Positions 1,643-55,003 of a stretch of 64,000 nt of DNA are shown here, in pieces. Below the pieces are notes generated by a model. The model did not search any database and was not told the DNA's origin. It saw only the letters and a program-made list of their open reading frames with translations. The position numbers were made by a program, and so were the translations under genes. Position 1 is the stretch's first letter, and every line of letters starts with the position of its first letter. Origin of the DNA: Escherichia phage V18; the sequence record NC_041937.1; one strand, given 5' to 3'.

Positions 1643-1672
1643 TTGACAAAAGTGTTATTAATCTGATATTAT
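1643..1672 (+). promoter_or_regulatory. sigma70-like promoter
   Basis: TTGACA at 1643-1648, 17-18 bp spacer, ATATTAT at 1666-1672; upstream of 1747..2013. Confidence 0.4.
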
Positions 1673-2005: not shown

Positions 2006-3145
2006 TTGAGTAGAGAATATCCACTTATTGAGTCCATAGATTGTCTGGCTGATCTTCTTGAACCTGACGCTATAGTTTATTATGACTTCGATCAGGTTGC
2101 ATATCAAGCTGCAGCAAGTTGTGAAAAAAGGACAATTGAGGTAACACACAAAGCCTCCGGACGTAAGAAGATGTTTAAAACACGAACAGAGTTCTGGGGG
2201 CGGCAGAAGAACACCGTTGGTGGTTGGTTAAAAGCTGAGAATACCAACCGTGAAGCTGCATGTAAAAAGGCTGGCAAGGAGTTTATTCCGTGGACACGAG
2301 AAGATTTCGATGTCTTGGATATCCAAACCCCTGATCCTGTAGAGAACTGCTTGCACACAATTAAGTGTAAAGCCAATGCAGTCCTTAATTATCTCGGTAT
2401 TCCGGAAGATCGGTGCGTGGGGGTACTTGGAGGCACAGGTAATTTCAGACTAGATCTTCCCATGCCGGAAAGATATAAAGCCAACCGTAACAATACTCTT
2501 CGACCACTGCTGCTTGGAGATGCAAGACAGTATCTCCAAAAGCAGTATAATGCTCAAGTGATCAACGGTATCGAGGCTGACGACTGGTTAGCTATCCAGC
2601 AATTTGAAGGTTGGAACCACTACCAAAAAACAGGTAAGTTCAACAAGTTTATTATCTCTATTGATAAGGACCAAAGAACACTACCGGGGCTTGTGTTCGA
2701 TCCCATGCGAAACGATAAGGGAGATTTTGTAAGGGAAACCCCTATGCTGATCGATAACGGTATGGGGAACATCTTCATGAAGCCTAATGGAGAGGTTGGT
2801 GGTTACGGAATGCTGTTCTTCGGATACCAAATGCTGTGTGGTGACTCTGCTGACAACATCAAGCCGTATCAAGGACTTATCGGTAAGGGTAAGTTCGGAG
2901 ATGCCTCAGCATTCTACCTACTGTCTCAGTGCAGCACTCCAAAGGAGATGTGGGTGGCTATTATTGATCAGTACAAGAAGTGGTTCCCGAAAGGTGTTGT
3001 TAAGTATACTGACTTCAATGGTATTGATCGTAGAATTTCCGTAGGTCAATGGATGAGTATAATTTTTGACTGTTTGTATATGAAGCGAACATTCAATGAT
3101 CAAACAAAACTTGTTAACGTTCTTAGAAATGTTGGAGCAATTTGA
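2006..3145 (+). CDS. 5'-3' exonuclease / flap endonuclease (T5 D15 / Pol I 5'-nuclease family)
   Basis: 379 aa; acidic clusters YYDFD, RYKANR, GIEADD, CGDSADNIKPYQGLIGKGKFGDA (helix-hairpin-helix region). Confidence 0.7.
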   Translation: MSREYPLIESIDCLADLLEPDAIVYYDFDQVAYQAAASCEKRTIEVTHKASGRKKMFKTRTEFWGRQKNTVGGWLKAENTNREAACKKAGKEFIPWTREDFDVLDIQTPDPVENCLHTIKCKANAVLNYLGIPEDRCVGVLGGTGNFRLDLPMPERYKANRNNTLRPLLLGDARQYLQKQYNAQVINGIEADDWLAIQQFEGWNHYQKTGKFNKFIISIDKDQRTLPGLVFDPMRNDKGDFVRETPMLIDNGMGNIFMKPNGEVGGYGMLFFGYQMLCGDSADNIKPYQGLIGKGKFGDASAFYLLSQCSTPKEMWVAIIDQYKKWFPKGVVKYTDFNGIDRRISVGQWMSIIFDCLYMKRTFNDQTKLVNVLRNVGAI

Positions 3146-3473
3146 TGACTAAAAATTCTGTAGATAACGCAATTATGGAAGCTGTTTTTGAGGATGATCA
3201 CACAACAGGGACACTTAAAACAAAAAATACATTCGTTGTTGCCACAGGTATGTGGCGGTTGTATGAAGATGACACCATTTCATACATCCTGTACACGGAT
3301 GATTACGCAGATGACCGTGTATGGTCTGCTGTTTTAAAAGAGGATTGTGAGCTGATTGAGGGCGAGCGGTTATGCATGTTCACCAGTGTGGAAACAGATG
3401 TTAAGCTTTGCTCTCTCGTCTTGTTCAAAGATAAGGCTTATGCTCCTGATGAAGGAGAGGAGGATGAGGAAGC

Positions 3474-4103
3474 ATGAGAGAGCGTCTATTATCCATAGAC
3501 CAGTCGTTGACACACACAGCTTGCGTTGTATGGGACGATGGAAAGCCTGTTCATAAGGTTGTGTTACGAACTCAAAGCTCATCTGCAAAAGAGATGAAAC
3601 CAGGGACGGTTTCTTTTGCAACAGCTGCTGAGCGTATTGACTGGATCTGCAAACAGGTCAGATATTATATCCACACGCACGGCGTTGACACCGTAGTTAT
3701 GGAAGGGCTTTCCTTTGGATCACGCGGGGATGCCACACGTGAACTGGCTGGGTTGTTTTACGGTCTTGAAGTTATGCTTTGGGATGCCTTAGCTGATTGT
3801 GAAAATGACGGCCTGTTTAAGGTCCACACAGTGACACCAACAACTGCCAAAAAGTTTGCTCGTAGTCATCTTCCTGAGGAACTTGCTTTCGAGGAGAAGA
3901 AAAAGCTTGACAAAAAGACAGGTAAAGAGCATACTGTGAAGAAACCTGTTACGATGGATAAAAAGTTGATGGTTAAGGCCTGCGAAGTATCTGAACCTGG
4001 GTTCCTAGATGGGATCAATTTGGTACAAGGTAAGGCCGATCTCGCAGATGCTTATTGGATAGGCAGGGCGCATCTGGAGGGATTATCGCAAAGCGTAAAA
4101 TAA
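3474..4103 (+). CDS. RuvC-like Holliday junction resolvase (putative)
   Basis: 209 aa; N-terminal LSIDQSLTHTACVVWDD, central VVMEGLSFGS, C-terminal DLADAYWIG, matching the spacing of RuvC-fold catalytic acidic residues. Confidence 0.45.
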   Translation: MRERLLSIDQSLTHTACVVWDDGKPVHKVVLRTQSSSAKEMKPGTVSFATAAERIDWICKQVRYYIHTHGVDTVVMEGLSFGSRGDATRELAGLFYGLEVMLWDALADCENDGLFKVHTVTPTTAKKFARSHLPEELAFEEKKKLDKKTGKEHTVKKPVTMDKKLMVKACEVSEPGFLDGINLVQGKADLADAYWIGRAHLEGLSQSVK

Positions 4104-4660
4104 GAAAGAAAGCTGTCAAAGCCCCCGTTCATAACGGGTGGTTAAAAGATTCTAAGGACATAGCCAACTTTCGAAAAGAATTGTCAGAGGAGCAGGATGG
4201 TCTTGATCCGATCTTGTGCGAGCCACTTCGTAAGCCTTGTTTGGATCATGACCATCTAACTGGTCGTTGCAGGGGTGTTTTGTCACAATGCACTAATACC
4301 TTTGAGGGGTATGTGCTTAAATACTGGATGAAATACTGTAACGAGTATACAGATTGCAGTTTATCAGAGGCGTTGCGCCGGATGGCTGACTATTTGGAGA
4401 AAGACTACAGCGACTTCCCGCTCCACAAAAACTACAGAGATGATATGACAAAGTTCTTGAGGAGATGCTCTAAAGCTACGATCATTGCACGAGCAGAATC
4501 AGATCTCAATCTTGTCATTAATCCAGAGTGCACCAAGCATGAGGCTATTGAGTTCTACATGCAGGAGTTTATAAAGAAAACTGAGGAGAGAGATTTCTAT
4601 GGGGATGAAAAAGGTATTCAATCCTTGCGATTCAGTTCTGATCAGGATGAAATACCGTAA
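4055..4660 (+). CDS. endonuclease VII-like (T4 gp49 family) protein
   Basis: Motif CEPLRKPCLDHDHLTGRCRGVLSQCTN (C..C…DHDH.TG..RG.L..C.N). The start is a non-ATG codon overlapping the upstream gene, so the true start is uncertain. Confidence 0.55.
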   Translation: MDRQGASGGIIAKRKIRKKAVKAPVHNGWLKDSKDIANFRKELSEEQDGLDPILCEPLRKPCLDHDHLTGRCRGVLSQCTNTFEGYVLKYWMKYCNEYTDCSLSEALRRMADYLEKDYSDFPLHKNYRDDMTKFLRRCSKATIIARAESDLNLVINPECTKHEAIEFYMQEFIKKTEERDFYGDEKGIQSLRFSSDQDEIP

Positions 4661-4826
4661 CTGGAAAGGTGTTGTTGCAGATCGCTGCGTTACTGAGCCT
4701 AATTTATGGTTTGGCTCTACAGAGTATCATAAAGAAGAGCAGTGGTTGATGCATGCCTTTGATGTAGACAAGGGCGAATATCGTGACTTCGCTTTAAAAG
4801 ACATTCTTCAGTTTTACTAAGGAATC

Positions 4827-5816
4827 TTGACGATGATGACAAAGTTAACTCTTGAGCAAATTTTAACACTAAAGCAACAGGGATACACTAATAGACAAAT
4901 TGCTCGTGAATTTTTAGGCCGTGAGTCACGTGAGAGCTGGATCCGACTACAGCTTAAACGTGCACAGGAGAATATGTCAGAGATTGTAGGAGAAGCAACG
5001 GAGCGCTTCCTTGAAGAGCACAAAGGTGCTAAAGTTTGGGTGTATGATACAGAGACATCTCCAACAAACGGCTGGTTCTTTGGGCACTATAAGACCAACA
5101 TTCAAACCTGCGGTATTGAAATTATGCCCTACATGCTAACTTTCGCAGGTAAGTGGTTAGACAGTCCTAGTGTGGTTGACTGCGCTCTTCCCGATTACAA
5201 AATGTGGGATGAGGATATTCACAATGATCTCGAATTGATTCAGGATTTGTGGTATTATCTGGATAAATGTGATGTCGCAGTAGCCCACAATTCAGGTTTT
5301 GACTGTGGGTGGGCCAACCAACGATTTGCATTTCACGGGTTGCCTCCAACAAGCCCCTACAAAGAGGTTGACACCCTTAAAATGATCAAGAAGGCATTCC
5401 GTTTGAATGCAAACACTTTGGAGTATGCATGCAAATACTTCCAACTGGCCCGACAGAAACTGATTGATCACACATTTGAAATGTGGATCAAGTGTGTCCA
5501 TGGTGATCTTGAGGCATTTAAACAGATGCGGGAGTATAATGTTGGTGATATCCTGTCTCTGGAAGGACTGTATTTGCTGGCTCGCCCGTTTGCTAAGCAG
5601 CACCCAAACATGTCATTGTACTATCAAGACGAGGAGCCAAAAGTTCGTTGTCCACGCTGTGGTGGAGAACACCTTCACGAGGAAGAAGCTTTGGCGTATA
5701 CTCAACTGAGTGCATTTAAAACATACCGCTGCGAAGGTTGTGGATCTGTTGTTCGTGACCGTAACAACATCCGCACCAGAGAAGAAATGAAAAATACCCT
5801 GATTCAGATAATCTAA
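4827..5816 (+). CDS. DEDD-family 3'-5' exonuclease with N-terminal HTH-like segment
   Basis: 329 aa; WVYDTETSP (Exo I), VAHNSGFDCGW (Exo II), YNVGDILSLEGLY (Exo III, YxxxD); N-terminal QGYTNRQIAREF; C-terminal CPRCGG…CEGCG zinc ribbon. Confidence 0.55.
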   Translation: MTMMTKLTLEQILTLKQQGYTNRQIAREFLGRESRESWIRLQLKRAQENMSEIVGEATERFLEEHKGAKVWVYDTETSPTNGWFFGHYKTNIQTCGIEIMPYMLTFAGKWLDSPSVVDCALPDYKMWDEDIHNDLELIQDLWYYLDKCDVAVAHNSGFDCGWANQRFAFHGLPPTSPYKEVDTLKMIKKAFRLNANTLEYACKYFQLARQKLIDHTFEMWIKCVHGDLEAFKQMREYNVGDILSLEGLYLLARPFAKQHPNMSLYYQDEEPKVRCPRCGGEHLHEEEALAYTQLSAFKTYRCEGCGSVVRDRNNIRTREEMKNTLIQII

Positions 5817-5824
5817 CAATTATA

Positions 5825-5850
5825 GGGAGGCTTGCGCCTCCCTTTTCCTT
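5825..5850 (+). terminator. rho-independent terminator
   Basis: GGGAGGC-ttgc-GCCTCCC stem-loop followed by TTTT, just after the stop of 4827..5816. Confidence 0.5.
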
Positions 5851-6678
5851 TTGGAGGCACTTTGAGCAAGAAAGAGTCCAACGACAAATACTACACAAAC
5901 CCTGAGTATGCAGAATATCTTGTTGGTAAAGTAAAAGATAAGTATGGGAATTGTGCATACGTTGAGCCTTCTGCTGGAAGGGGTTCTTTTTCAAAACTAT
6001 TTTCAGAGATACTGTCGTACGATTTAGTACCAGATCCTGAATTTGAAGGACCAACACCGTGCATTCAGGCAAACTTCTTGGAGGTGCATCCCAAGGCAGA
6101 TGTCTTCATAGGTAACCCACCATTTGGCAAGAATTCATCCTTAGCTTGCAAATTCTTTAACCATTGTGCATCATTGCTAGAGCTTGGAGGGGCTATAGCC
6201 TTCATCTTGCCACGGACATTTGAAAAAATTTTTTTCAAACAAACTGGACATGTCGATGCACCTTGTCTACAGCGAAAGGTGCCCTAAGAATTCGTTTTTA
6301 CTTAATGGCAAACCTTATGACGTGCCATGTGTTTTCCAAATTTGGGAGAAAAAGGCGTGCAATAGGGATCCTGTAGAGATTGGAGAGAATAAGTTATTTT
6401 CTTTTAGCACACCAGATGACTACGACTTCTGTGTAAGACGTGTTGGGTATAATGCTGGAAAAGTATTGGGGGATGATGACCCAAAATCTGAAGAATCAAC
6501 ATATTTCATAAAATCTTTAGTTAACGGTGTTGACAGAGTGTTTGCTGAATGCTATTCTTCTTTTCAAGAAGAAGCAGGTAAGACTGCTGGAATGAAGAGT
6601 ATAGGTAAGAAAGAACTACAATACATTTTGGAGACCAGGTATGATCAAAAGCATAGACTTGACCAAAGAACTTACTGA
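5832..6678 (+). CDS. N6-adenine DNA methyltransferase, frame interrupted near 6220-6290
   Basis: AdoMet motif EPSAGRGSF and catalytic IGNPPFGKN in ORF 5832..6287; continuation (…CVFQIWEKK) in ORF 6220..6678 in another frame; break in an A6T7 homopolymer stretch. Start codon uncertain. Confidence 0.5.
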
Positions 6679-7099
6679 TGCAAAAGCTTTTGGTGAGACA
6701 GCGGTACAAAGAGGACAGGCGATGGGACTGGCACTACCTTTCGTCTTAAAAGAGCACTTTACAGATTTTCAACTTATCAAAGGTGATAAGGGAATGCTTA
6801 TCCTGGAGCATAAGTTGAGTAAGAAACGCTATAAAGTCGTTTTTAATTCTAAAGCTCCAACAAAACTGGGATTCAGAACTTACAATCTTAACCCATCCTA
6901 CACTAAGGGTGTTGGAAGGGTAGAACAACAGCATTTCAGTGCCAGAGCTTCTTTAGCCCCTTTGATGCTAAATTTCTCAGGGGTGGCTTTAGGATACCTT
7001 GATAAGAAAAGGGTTCTTCATGTTCGTTTCACAGACTTTGTAACGCTTTTAGCTAACAACGAGGTTGATGAGAAGGGACGTGTAAAAACAAACTTCTAA
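6641..7099 (+). CDS. hypothetical protein
   Basis: 152-aa ORF, no recognisable motif. Confidence 0.3.
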   Translation: MIKSIDLTKELTDAKAFGETAVQRGQAMGLALPFVLKEHFTDFQLIKGDKGMLILEHKLSKKRYKVVFNSKAPTKLGFRTYNLNPSYTKGVGRVEQQHFSARASLAPLMLNFSGVALGYLDKKRVLHVRFTDFVTLLANNEVDEKGRVKTNF

Positions 7100-52225: not shown

Positions 52226-55003
52226 TTAGTGACAATCACCCCAATTACGACCACACAAGTATTCACCTGTGATCTGGAACGGGACTCCCATCATTTTAGA
52301 AGCTTGCCAGAAGCAATGCACCACCATTTCACCCACAGGGCTCCAGATAAGCTCAAGCTTTCCGTCATCGTTCAGGATAGGATCGTACACCGTGTTTCCG
52401 TCTCTGTCAACCACTTCGTTTCCGTCCTCATCCTTGCGTGCCTTTTTGTACTTATGACCGTCGAACACATGAAGTTTGGCCTCCTGCTCTGCCTTAAATG
52501 CTTCCAGTTCTTCGATTGTGTCGAAGGTGTACACAGTCTTATACTTCGGTGTGTCAGGGACTTGAAGCTGATATTCGTCATGGTAATAGATAATACGACG
52601 AACACCTTCATCGTACCACCCACGCTTCACCATTTGGTGGTGCATGAGTATCCCAACTAAGTCACACAGCGATGCACCACCATTCTGTTGGTATGCATTA
52701 AGTAAAGAGTGTTTAGATCGGGTCCAGATAGCATGACCATCAAAAGAGTAGATAAACTTCTTACCCGTTGCTTCCCAGAATTTCTCCAGATCTTCTTTAC
52801 GCCCCTTAAGACCGGGGTTGGCATCCCAAAGTGCATCGATTACCCTTTGTCCCAACTCTGGAGAGATGTCCAGCATATCTGCAACTTTATCTTTTTGTGC
52901 CCCATACATAACCCCATACGTGATAGGTTTACCGTCGTTACGAGACACCTCTCTGCCTGCTACTTTTGTATATGCTTCAGCATTGTTTTGGTGTGCGTCC
53001 CCGTTACTTACAACATCATAATACAATCCGTTGTCGAACTCAAAGGCACCCCAAGCCCCGATAAGCTGCTCTAAGTTGGACCCGTCAATACCGATCTCAA
53101 AGTATCCTGGAGGAACACCCCACAGACTACGCATCTCTTTACCCATGACCACTTTAGGAGATGGTTTAGGCATGTTTGCACAAATACTGTGTTTCTGTCG
53201 GGAAGTGTTTGTTAACCCAGAGCTTTTAGCAGGAAGCTTATGGTCAATCTTCAAACGTGGATGATTAAGAAGACCAGTATCAACCTTATCCTCCTTGATT
53301 GGATCAAGTACCGATCTGCGGTTTCGCAATGATAACCACAAGACGATATCTTTAGCCATCTCTCCGTTCAATTTTTCAAGATTCGGGCATAGGTGTCCAA
53401 ACGTATCTTTCAGTTGCGGAGAAGTAATAAGTGCCCTAGCTTTTCTACGTATTTTCCCGAATACTTCCTTTTTAATCCTTTCGGAGTTAGGAAAGCTTCG
53501 GAACTTGTGCACGGTTGTCTGGAACTTAGCATCAGTTTTGTTCCAGAAGTTGATAATCAGGTCACAATACTCTGACTCTAAAAGCTCGTCCATATATGCA
53601 TATACTCGTGCATCAACATCTGCATCAGGTAGAGCTTTCTTCTTGCTGTCTTTAGTTACATCCTTAGTTCTCCACATTGTCGGAAGCCAACCAGCACTGA
53701 TCAGGTATCGCTTAATGTCGTCCTGGTTGCTGATTTTCATAGGTATCTTGCAGTCCGGCATTCGCTTCTGCTGTAGATCACTTATTGCCTGATCCATTAG
53801 CTCTTTAGGTAAAGGTTGTGGTGTGGAGGTGCCCTTAATATAGCCTCTCAAGAAATCAGCCATCTTATCGGGGTCTTTGCAGCCCATCTCTTCACACCAT
53901 TTTATCCCCATCTTACTGACATCTCCTGTAGAGGTAAATGCTCGCTTAGGCGGGGCTTTGAACTCTAAAGCGCTCATATCTACAGGATAGCCAAGCTTAT
54001 CTTTTAACCATTTCCAACCATTATTGGAGATTGTCCCATCTTGGTTAAACGGCTTTTCAGGGAACTTGGGCCGCTGAGACATTGACAGCTCTTTTAAAGG
54101 TAGTTGCGGTTCAACACGATCAGCGATTTCTTTCATCCACGCATCGCAACGGTCACGTAAAGCAATAGCTCCATCTATGTCAAAATACACACCCTGACGG
54201 GCCTGCAGCTCCATCAGGAAGTGCTGCAGCATGCCTCGGCGTAATGCGTTCTTCCAGGTGATCTTCTTGAACCCTTTCGGCTTCTCTTTGGCAGGATCGT
54301 ACATAAAGTTCTGCATGTCAGATTTGCCGTAGAATACACCTTTTGATTCCGCTACCAGCTCTTTCCAGAGCAGCTCCTGGATGATAACGTCCTCGAATAC
54401 ACGATCCACATACTTCCACAACGGAAGATCGCGCCAGTCATCAATTTGAACTTTCTGGTTACCAAGGGCGTAGCCCCATGCCATAAGGCCGTGAGGACCA
54501 ACAGGTTGCATTTTCTTAGTAACCGGGTTGAATACAGCGTCCGGACAACCTTTTGGTAAAGGGCGATCAGGCCACAAGATTCGGCTCATAGCCAACGTAT
54601 CAAACAGGTTAACCTGGTGGTCGTTGATAGTCCCCATGCATTTAGGATCACGGAACATATCAAAATGAATACCGGATAATCTTTCCATCAGCATAAAGTC
54701 ATAACTGTAGCAGTTATGGCAGTTCAAAGCTGTTGGTGACCAGTCGGAATTGCCTGTAAGCCAACCTTCCAACTCCGAAAAATCTGCTATGCGAACTTCA
54801 AAATCTTTATAAAGAGTTTTCTTTGCCAGAATAAAGTTCTTAGCCTTTTCTATATCCTCCTCGGAGTAGTGTGTGCGGCTATTTAGAGGAAGGAACAGCA
54901 TAAAACGGTTCTTATTCAGCTCTTTAAACAGACCGCAGTGATAATAAAGATCTGGGTCTTCCAGCAAACCGGATGACTCAAAATCGAACGACCACATACT
55001 CAT
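52226..55003 (-). CDS. DNA polymerase, family A, with N-terminal 3'-5' exonuclease domain
   Basis: 925 aa; N-terminal FDFESSGL (Exo I); polymerase motif B …KPITYGVMYGAQ and motif C YYHDEYQLQV. Confidence 0.85.
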   Translation of the reverse strand: MSMWSFDFESSGLLEDPDLYYHCGLFKELNKNRFMLFLPLNSRTHYSEEDIEKAKNFILAKKTLYKDFEVRIADFSELEGWLTGNSDWSPTALNCHNCYSYDFMLMERLSGIHFDMFRDPKCMGTINDHQVNLFDTLAMSRILWPDRPLPKGCPDAVFNPVTKKMQPVGPHGLMAWGYALGNQKVQIDDWRDLPLWKYVDRVFEDVIIQELLWKELVAESKGVFYGKSDMQNFMYDPAKEKPKGFKKITWKNALRRGMLQHFLMELQARQGVYFDIDGAIALRDRCDAWMKEIADRVEPQLPLKELSMSQRPKFPEKPFNQDGTISNNGWKWLKDKLGYPVDMSALEFKAPPKRAFTSTGDVSKMGIKWCEEMGCKDPDKMADFLRGYIKGTSTPQPLPKELMDQAISDLQQKRMPDCKIPMKISNQDDIKRYLISAGWLPTMWRTKDVTKDSKKKALPDADVDARVYAYMDELLESEYCDLIINFWNKTDAKFQTTVHKFRSFPNSERIKKEVFGKIRRKARALITSPQLKDTFGHLCPNLEKLNGEMAKDIVLWLSLRNRRSVLDPIKEDKVDTGLLNHPRLKIDHKLPAKSSGLTNTSRQKHSICANMPKPSPKVVMGKEMRSLWGVPPGYFEIGIDGSNLEQLIGAWGAFEFDNGLYYDVVSNGDAHQNNAEAYTKVAGREVSRNDGKPITYGVMYGAQKDKVADMLDISPELGQRVIDALWDANPGLKGRKEDLEKFWEATGKKFIYSFDGHAIWTRSKHSLLNAYQQNGGASLCDLVGILMHHQMVKRGWYDEGVRRIIYYHDEYQLQVPDTPKYKTVYTFDTIEELEAFKAEQEAKLHVFDGHKYKKARKDEDGNEVVDRDGNTVYDPILNDDGKLELIWSPVGEMVVHCFWQASKMMGVPFQITGEYLCGRNWGDCH

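Follow-up and report, generated by a model that had tools for sequence, protein, structure and literature searches.

This analysis concerns a gene of Escherichia phage V18 (NC_041937.1) that lies within a 64,000-nucleotide stretch of its DNA, hereafter the window, and that encodes a stand-alone exonuclease of the DEDDy type. The coding sequence (CDS) most likely runs from 4833 to 5816 on the plus strand, as do all features below unless stated otherwise, and its product of 327 amino acids (aa) joins a DnaQ-fold catalytic core to an N-terminal helix-turn-helix (HTH)-like segment and a C-terminal zinc ribbon. This is the architecture that a sequence-only reading of the window had described for a stand-alone DEDD exonuclease, and it is confirmed here by conserved motifs, a structural model and profile comparisons. 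As a tentative reading, which we prefer without regarding it as probable, the enzyme would be an accessory 3'→5' DNA exonuclease that processes 3' ends together with co-encoded nucleases in replication-coupled recombination or repair. We favour this role because of the gene's position in a run of nuclease genes, the recurrence of that arrangement in other phages, the small DNA-binding modules that alternate at the N-terminus across the family, the placing of relatives in the Pfam family of the repair exonuclease MrfB, and several signs against proofreading.

The exonuclease core spans residues ~68-260 (5028..5606), numbered here and below in the 329-aa frame that opens at TTG 4827. Alignments place the Exo I motif at D74-T-E76 (5046..5054), Exo II at N155-SGF-D159 (5289..5303) and Exo III at Y237-NVG-D241 (5535..5549). 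The residues D74, E76, D159, Y237 and D241 are invariant in three alignments, of 27, 7 and 26 relatives, that reach as low as 25% identity, and N155 is invariant or at least 90% conserved (26-27 relatives, down to 25% identity). Exo III reads Y-x3-D, not H-x4-D, which assigns the protein to the DEDDy subgroup and not to the DEDDh subgroup of the E. coli proofreading subunit epsilon. The acidic Exo I-III motifs and an RNase H-like α/β core fold, both of which are present, define the DnaQ-like (DEDD) superfamily. The AlphaFold2 model (mean predicted local distance difference test score (pLDDT) 87, predicted template modelling score 0.75) comprises three N-terminal helices, a linker helix, the α/β core and three C-terminal strands, and its exonuclease fold is nearest to polymerase editing domains on structure comparison. 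Searches of the PDB returned no close relative of the exonuclease with a solved structure; E. coli epsilon was matched at E 7e-3 with the single sequence and at E 1.7e-5 with the family profile, which also matched the Pol delta exonuclease domain (E 1e-4) and MrfB (E 4.8e-3). Taken at the level of motifs and fold, the protein is predicted to be a metal-dependent 3'→5' exonuclease acting on DNA. An inactive nuclease serving as a transcription factor was considered and ruled out, all catalytic residues being invariant family-wide.

Five non-catalytic residues, K109, D149, D182, W220 and R310 (5151-5153, 5271-5273, 5370-5372, 5484-5486 and 5754-5756, respectively), are also invariant or nearly so in very distant members. 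Among them, D149 sits before Exo II in a conserved motif, D-x-D-[IV]-x-V-A-H-N.

Beyond the core, residues ~270-312 (5634..5762) form the putative zinc ribbon, in which the cysteines of C275-x2-C278 and C302-x2-C305 vary little or not at all across the family alignments. In the model, strands 283-291, 296-302 and 308-310 are flanked by the two CxxC knuckles, and several zinc-ribbon Pfam models match the protein below threshold. The four cysteines and small β-sheet together have the form of a zinc ribbon, with putative metal binding. The N-terminal segment covers residues 8-48 (4848..4970) and is modelled as three helices (9-17, 22-29 and 33-48), with block pLDDT values of 85-91 across residues 11-40. 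When a profile of this segment was compared with the PDB, the significant named matches were solely HTH DNA-binding domains (NarL, E 1.3e-3; RhlR; GcrA; a resolvase), those of NarL, RhlR and GcrA falling between 1e-3 and 1e-2. The Pfam model HTH_38 is matched by 13 of 16 members, each below the gathering score, and the turn of the segment is two residues longer than in the matched HTHs. ‘HTH-like’ is a fair label for this putative DNA-binding segment.

Across the family, the exonuclease and zinc ribbon form the constant core, while the N-terminal module is variable. It is missing in short members of ~250-265 aa, takes the form of an HTH in rV5-like, phi92-like and ICP1 members, and is Myb-like in one member (P0068) and NUMOD1 in another (P0122), so that the named variants are all small DNA-binding modules; other members have longer N-terminal extensions that lack a Pfam match. 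Two members (P0134, 576 aa; P0163, 587 aa) are longer by ~250 aa, and their alignment to the family profile is broken into two stretches. Their extra part has no Pfam match, and the split suggests either a domain added within the exonuclease gene or the insertion of an element such as an intein or homing endonuclease.

The open reading frame (ORF) listing of the window gives a 329-aa frame at 4827..5816 that opens with TTG 4827. The letters directly 5' of it are TAAGGAATCTTGACGATGATG, and a ribosome-binding site, AAGGAA, can be read at 4819..4824, overlapping the stop of the small ORF upstream. This site lies 8 nucleotides (nt) from ATG 4833 and 2 nt from TTG 4827. The protein is 100% identical over 327 aa to bas55_0194 of phage JeffSchatz, whose deposited start is the same ATG. 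We therefore take ATG 4833 as the more likely start, because AAGGAA is too near the TTG and the deposited orthologue begins at the ATG. Escherichia phage nom shares 99.5% identity with the region 4000-7000, and 119 phage records, almost all from rV5-like Vequintaviruses, share at least 90%, so the window belongs to an rV5-like myovirus genome. Across these 119 records the exonuclease itself is 90-100% identical. A chance or overlapping ORF is ruled out by this conservation and by the profile matches; the gene is real and comes from a large family.

That family is already catalogued. The protein matches PHROG 403, ‘DNA polymerase exonuclease subunit’, over its full length (E 1.4e-110; residues 4-328 against profile positions 2-320 of 321), and it shares the exonuclease and zinc-ribbon core found family-wide, with no structural difference of its own. 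The sequence-only reading had found no named phage protein with this combination of domains, which was wrong given the PHROG 403 match and the identity to bas55_0194, an annotated GenBank protein. Relatives were found by tblastn in 1,526 of 50,697 phage records, ~3% of those sequenced, and a profile search of 1.84 billion cluster representatives returned 5,746 at E<=1e-3 and 2,581 at E<=1e-30, the family size of ~5,700 being a count of clusters at 50% identity. Deposited names include ‘DnaQ-like 3'-5' exonuclease’ (BASEL bas55_0194), ‘putative DNA polymerase/exonuclease’, ‘DNA polymerase exonuclease subunit’ (also the RefSeq name) and ‘exonuclease’; SEA-PHAGES uses ‘DnaQ-like DNA polymerase III subunit’. 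The gene is thus an ordinary deposited annotation from a biochemically uncharacterised family. Our literature search found no paper characterising any phage member of PHROG 403, and the exact family name occurred in genome announcements only. No paper was found on ICP1 gp189, and other papers that came up dealt with different things: a calcineurin-fold nuclease in work on serine-integrase directionality factors, an exonuclease domain borne by the polymerase in ICP3, and a primer called ‘rV5’ in a Cas9 study. Among its nucleotide-metabolism genes, the rV5 genome paper includes an exo-deoxyribonuclease, gp94, which may be the gene described here (PMC3606486), and in the JG068 paper an HHpred match to epsilon gave rise to the name ‘DNA exonuclease gp24’ (PMC3765740). 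The label ‘polymerase subunit’ is an extrapolation from weak sequence similarity to epsilon alone.

Pfam gives a more varied picture. All 13 relatives scanned, including those of phikF77, Stenotrophomonas P15 and JoeDirt, pass the gathering score (22 bits) of PF13482 RNase_H_2, and the same 13 share the exonuclease family profile at E<1e-25; the window exonuclease had no PF13482 match at E<=1 in the Pfam scan. Its best exonuclease match is PF00929 RNase_T (21.7 bits, E 3.1e-4), which is partial (residues 137-211) and below the gathering score of 24 bits; a precomputed PF00929 match is present in many close homologues. Structural neighbours in BFVD are only uncharacterised ‘YprB ribonuclease H-like’ phage proteins, for example from LKA1.

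The gene closes a run of nuclease genes. Upstream of it lie a FEN-type 5'-3' exonuclease (2006..3145, PHROG 107), an unknown protein (3142..3477, PHROG 7583), a RuvC-like Holliday junction resolvase (3474..4103, PHROG 159), endonuclease VII (EndoVII; 4055..4660, PF02945 and PHROG 423) and a small conserved ORF (4599..4820, PHROG 3715) that is also found in Klebsiella phage BIS47. All six genes are on the same strand, with ends that abut or overlap. The best sigma-70-like promoter match, at 1643..1672, lies upstream of the run (11/12, with an extended -10 TG; a consensus match only), and a strong, terminator-like hairpin at 5824..5843 begins 8 nt past the exonuclease stop, with an 8-bp stem of which 6 pairs are GC. 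The hairpin reads AGGGAGGC-TTGC-GCCTCCCT and is followed by a T-rich tail. From the order of the run and this hairpin, both control elements being consensus matches, the exonuclease gene seems to end a nuclease transcription unit. In the orthologous JeffSchatz record, a DNA ligase is encoded upstream, and a methyltransferase, a P-loop NTPase, thymidylate synthase and NrdAB downstream.

The order FEN-(EndoVII)-exonuclease is repeated in four other, unrelated phage groups. The Mydovirus BIS47 has the complete gene set in the same order. In the phi92-like phage PHB05 the FEN gene overlaps the exonuclease start, the phiKMV-like phikF77 encodes FEN, EndoVII and exonuclease, and the same order is found in Burkholderia phage Bp-AMP1, Stenotrophomonas phage P15 and JG068 (PMC3765740). 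ICP1 has a FEN homologue 4.5 kb upstream of the exonuclease, the actinobacteriophages have the exonuclease gene after the lysis cassette, and in mycobacteriophage JoeDirt the gene is near a tRNA cluster. In the cluster-F1 phage Priscilla, the family member is gp35, 3' of the lysis cassette, and no DNA polymerase is annotated within the 24-58 kb non-structural region. In a second F1 phage, NormanBulbieJr, overexpression of the DnaQ-like gp35 is toxic to cells, and plaques remain normal once the gene is deleted (bioRxiv 10.64898/2025.12.12.693979). We infer that this gp35 is the counterpart of Priscilla gp35 from gene order, annotation and matching gene numbers, which the two phages share for gp35, the integrase (gp44), RecA (gp64) and an HNH protein (gp65).

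From the architecture, conserved active site, fold, neighbourhood and distribution together, we infer an activity, a substrate, contributions of the two terminal modules and a pathway. The core would strip nucleotides singly from free 3' ends, releasing deoxynucleoside 5'-monophosphates (5'-dNMPs). The four-cysteine zinc ribbon, as part of the conserved core, would most likely grip the single-stranded substrate or a partner protein, and the small N-terminal HTH would act as an exchangeable tether holding the enzyme to duplex DNA. Placed in this way, the exonuclease could trim what FEN, the RuvC-like resolvase and EndoVII leave behind, namely 3' tails, 3' flaps and nicked or gapped ends. This would take place during replication-coupled recombination, repair, or the processing of concatemers or branches, and would make the ends fit for annealing, extension or ligation. 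Several points weigh against this role. Both the exonuclease activity and its substrate are predictions, and gene neighbourhood in phages is weak evidence. The actinobacteriophage gene follows the lysis cassette, the ICP1 FEN homologue lies 4.5 kb away, and the downstream genes for nucleotide metabolism (thymidylate synthase and ribonucleotide reductase) fit salvage equally well. The orthology of NormanBulbieJr gp35 is itself a deduction from Priscilla gene order and annotation.

The family name would instead make the protein a proofreader in trans, one that binds the phage family A polymerase (PolA), or host Pol III where the phage has no polymerase, and edits mismatched 3' termini. Beyond the names in PHROG 403, RefSeq and SEA-PHAGES, this draws on the best, though weak, PDB sequence match being epsilon, on a fold nearest to polymerase editing domains, and on podoviral genes that lie within 4 kb of PolA. 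Against it, profile comparisons gave no clear orthology to a known proofreading subunit, the scores against the NCBIfam epsilon equivalogs being 26.8 bits for NF004316 (cut-off 196) and 23.0 bits for TIGR01406 (cut-off 222.7), and Y237 occupies the place of the catalytic Exo III histidine of epsilon. The phage polymerase is a T7-like family A enzyme of 925 aa (52226..55003, minus strand), whose N-terminus is 25% identical to T7 gp5. The gp5 residues D5, E7, D65, H123 and D174, which form its exonuclease site, align with D7, E9, D102, H171 and D205; since all five are kept, the phage PolA appears to carry its own exonuclease site, which bears out the sequence-only reading on this point. In the sampled podoviral PolAs, too, Exo I is retained and the Exo II motif can still be recognised, with E replacing the Exo II aspartate in phikF77. 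BLASTP of the exonuclease against the phage polymerase showed no meaningful similarity, their relation being visible solely through profiles (PHROG 17), and phmmer with the polymerase N-terminus alone against the PDB returned nothing relevant. The rV5 paper gives its polymerase, gp228, as 775 aa (PMC3606486); its N-terminal exonuclease domain was probably lost in that annotation. In the window the polymerase is encoded beside the primase/helicase, ~47 kb from the exonuclease and on the opposite strand, and deletion of the F1 counterpart leaves plaques unaffected. The evidence thus leans away from a dedicated proofreader, which we regard as distinctly doubtful. The earlier proposal of recombination or nucleic-acid degradation rather than proofreading is accordingly favoured on the polymerase exonuclease site, the distance, the nuclease run and the epsilon scores, all of which are circumstantial and stop short of proof.

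The main rival to end processing is the breakdown of host DNA for salvage, which we consider unlikely. T4 DexA offers the precedent. This stand-alone 3'-5' DNA exonuclease, DnaQ-type and non-essential, comes from a lytic phage, and the T4 polymerase likewise contains an editing site; DexA has been linked to the breakdown of host DNA as well as to the processing of ends in recombination and homing. In such a scheme, endonuclease fragments would be converted to 5'-dNMPs and passed to dNMP kinase, thymidylate synthase and reductase. The gene's position at the border between the nuclease run and the nucleotide-metabolism genes (P-loop NTPase, thymidylate synthase, NrdAB) suits this, the same genes follow in PHB05, ICP1 and a metagenomic contig (L015), rV5 gp94, perhaps the same gene, is grouped with nucleotide metabolism, and the F1 mycobacteriophage member is toxic on overexpression. 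The 5' exonuclease and endonuclease pair of T7, moreover, serves both recombination and host-DNA breakdown, which counts in favour of salvage. Set against this, the family is also found in temperate phages (cluster F1), where wholesale destruction of host DNA is unexpected, the upstream ligase and two junction resolvases suit repair or recombination better, and no sequence link to DexA emerged from the Pfam, PHROG or PDB searches. It is very improbable that the protein is an RNA 3' exonuclease of the RNase D or RNase T type, with host RNA, primers or the precursors of phage tRNAs as its substrates. The sub-threshold RNase_T match and the JoeDirt gene near a tRNA cluster point towards it, but DNA-polymerase exonuclease domains are matched more strongly, both by structure and by profile, all the co-transcribed partners are DNA enzymes, and neither HRDC nor any other RNA-binding domain is present. 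We give as little credence to a part in the conflict with host defences, in which the nuclease would either destroy retron multicopy single-stranded DNA or the complementary DNA of defence-associated reverse transcriptases, or be itself the trigger sensed in Vequintavirinae. Retrons Eco2 and Kva2 do protect against Vequintavirinae, for Eco2, no homologues of the known triggers DenB and A1 were found in most of these phages, and triggers in other phages are phage nucleases (PMC12916289; bioRxiv 10.64898/2026.07.14.738597). Nothing links this exonuclease to any defence system, however; the characterised triggers have unrelated nuclease folds, PADLOC gives just a weak generic match to a Cas-associated DEDDh protein (E 3.7e-6), and the gene belongs to the conserved core, within a DNA-metabolism run rather than a variable accessory region.

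Comparison with characterised systems shows partial resemblances on several sides. PF13482 takes its name from YprB, and its characterised member is Bacillus subtilis MrfB (YprB), a DNA-repair 3'-5' exonuclease. MrfB repairs mitomycin C damage together with the helicase MrfA. MrfB and the window exonuclease are alike as stand-alone exonucleases of the DNA-repair type, but MrfB is DEDDh (PMC11194089), whereas the family described here is DEDDy with a C-terminal zinc ribbon. The window exonuclease also has no adjacent helicase partner gene. DEDDy chemistry is that of family B polymerases and Pol I (PMC12926913), and the window exonuclease shares it with the exonuclease domains of family A and B polymerases (Pol epsilon, archaeal PolB, E. 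coli Pol II and T7 gp5). With T7 gp5 the resemblance extends to Exo III, EYNVGD here against DYNVQD. It differs from all of these in having no polymerase domain, in its additional HTH and zinc ribbon, and in being encoded separately from the phage polymerase and far from it. With epsilon (DnaQ) it has in common the DnaQ fold and weak sequence similarity over Exo II-III, but it is DEDDy where epsilon is DEDDh, and its 23-27 bits compare with cut-offs of 196-223. In place of the zinc ribbon, epsilon carries a clamp-binding motif and a C-terminal tail that binds alpha. The likeness to T4 DexA would be one of functional analogy only; the searches detected no sequence relation, and DexA has neither HTH nor zinc ribbon.

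The use of these results is mainly corrective. They cast doubt on the family names ‘DNA polymerase exonuclease subunit’ and ‘DnaQ-like Pol III subunit’, given the active-site type, the intact editing sites of the polymerases, the distance between the genes and the occurrence of a family member in a phage with no annotated polymerase. The recurrent FEN-EndoVII-exonuclease arrangement also provides a concrete, testable hypothesis for an abundant phage enzyme, and, being dispensable in at least one phage, the family is accessible to genetics. A bolder extension, which we regard as quite improbable, is that FEN, EndoVII and the DEDDy/zinc-ribbon exonuclease constitute a portable three-nuclease end-processing cassette, shared by the otherwise unrelated Vequintavirinae, Stephanstirmvirinae and phiKMV-like and Okabevirinae podoviruses. 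Its swappable N-terminal module (HTH, Myb or NUMOD1) would direct the exonuclease to particular DNA sites or structures, and in rV5-like phages the exonuclease might also be the nuclease sensed by retron-type defences.

Some further features of the locus deserve mention. The RuvC-like resolvase and EndoVII are two distinct junction-resolving nucleases encoded back to back, with overlapping ends, in one gene run. The hairpin at 5824..5843 has a perfect GC-rich stem, lies between the exonuclease and methyltransferase genes and attains a terminator score on both strands; the TTG at 5832, where the mechanically called methyltransferase ORF starts, falls inside it. That N6-adenine methyltransferase gene (5862..6680) is itself split into two ORFs in different frames, at ~5862..6287 and 6220..6678. 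Relative to the single 819-bp methyltransferase CDS of JeffSchatz, the window has two bases fewer within GAAAAAAT[A]TTTTTT[G]C, at ~6229-6235, and two methyltransferase CDSs are also annotated in phages nom, nimi, nomine, inoa and navn. A slippery tract, a frameshift variant that arose naturally and a sequencing artefact common to these records are all possible causes of the split. Lastly, 20 ‘Campylobacter phage’ records (MG0656xx, host C. jejuni) are at least 90% identical to the region 4000..7000, and those listed are ~98% identical. The attribution of these records to C. jejuni is odd and may reflect contamination or mislabelling.

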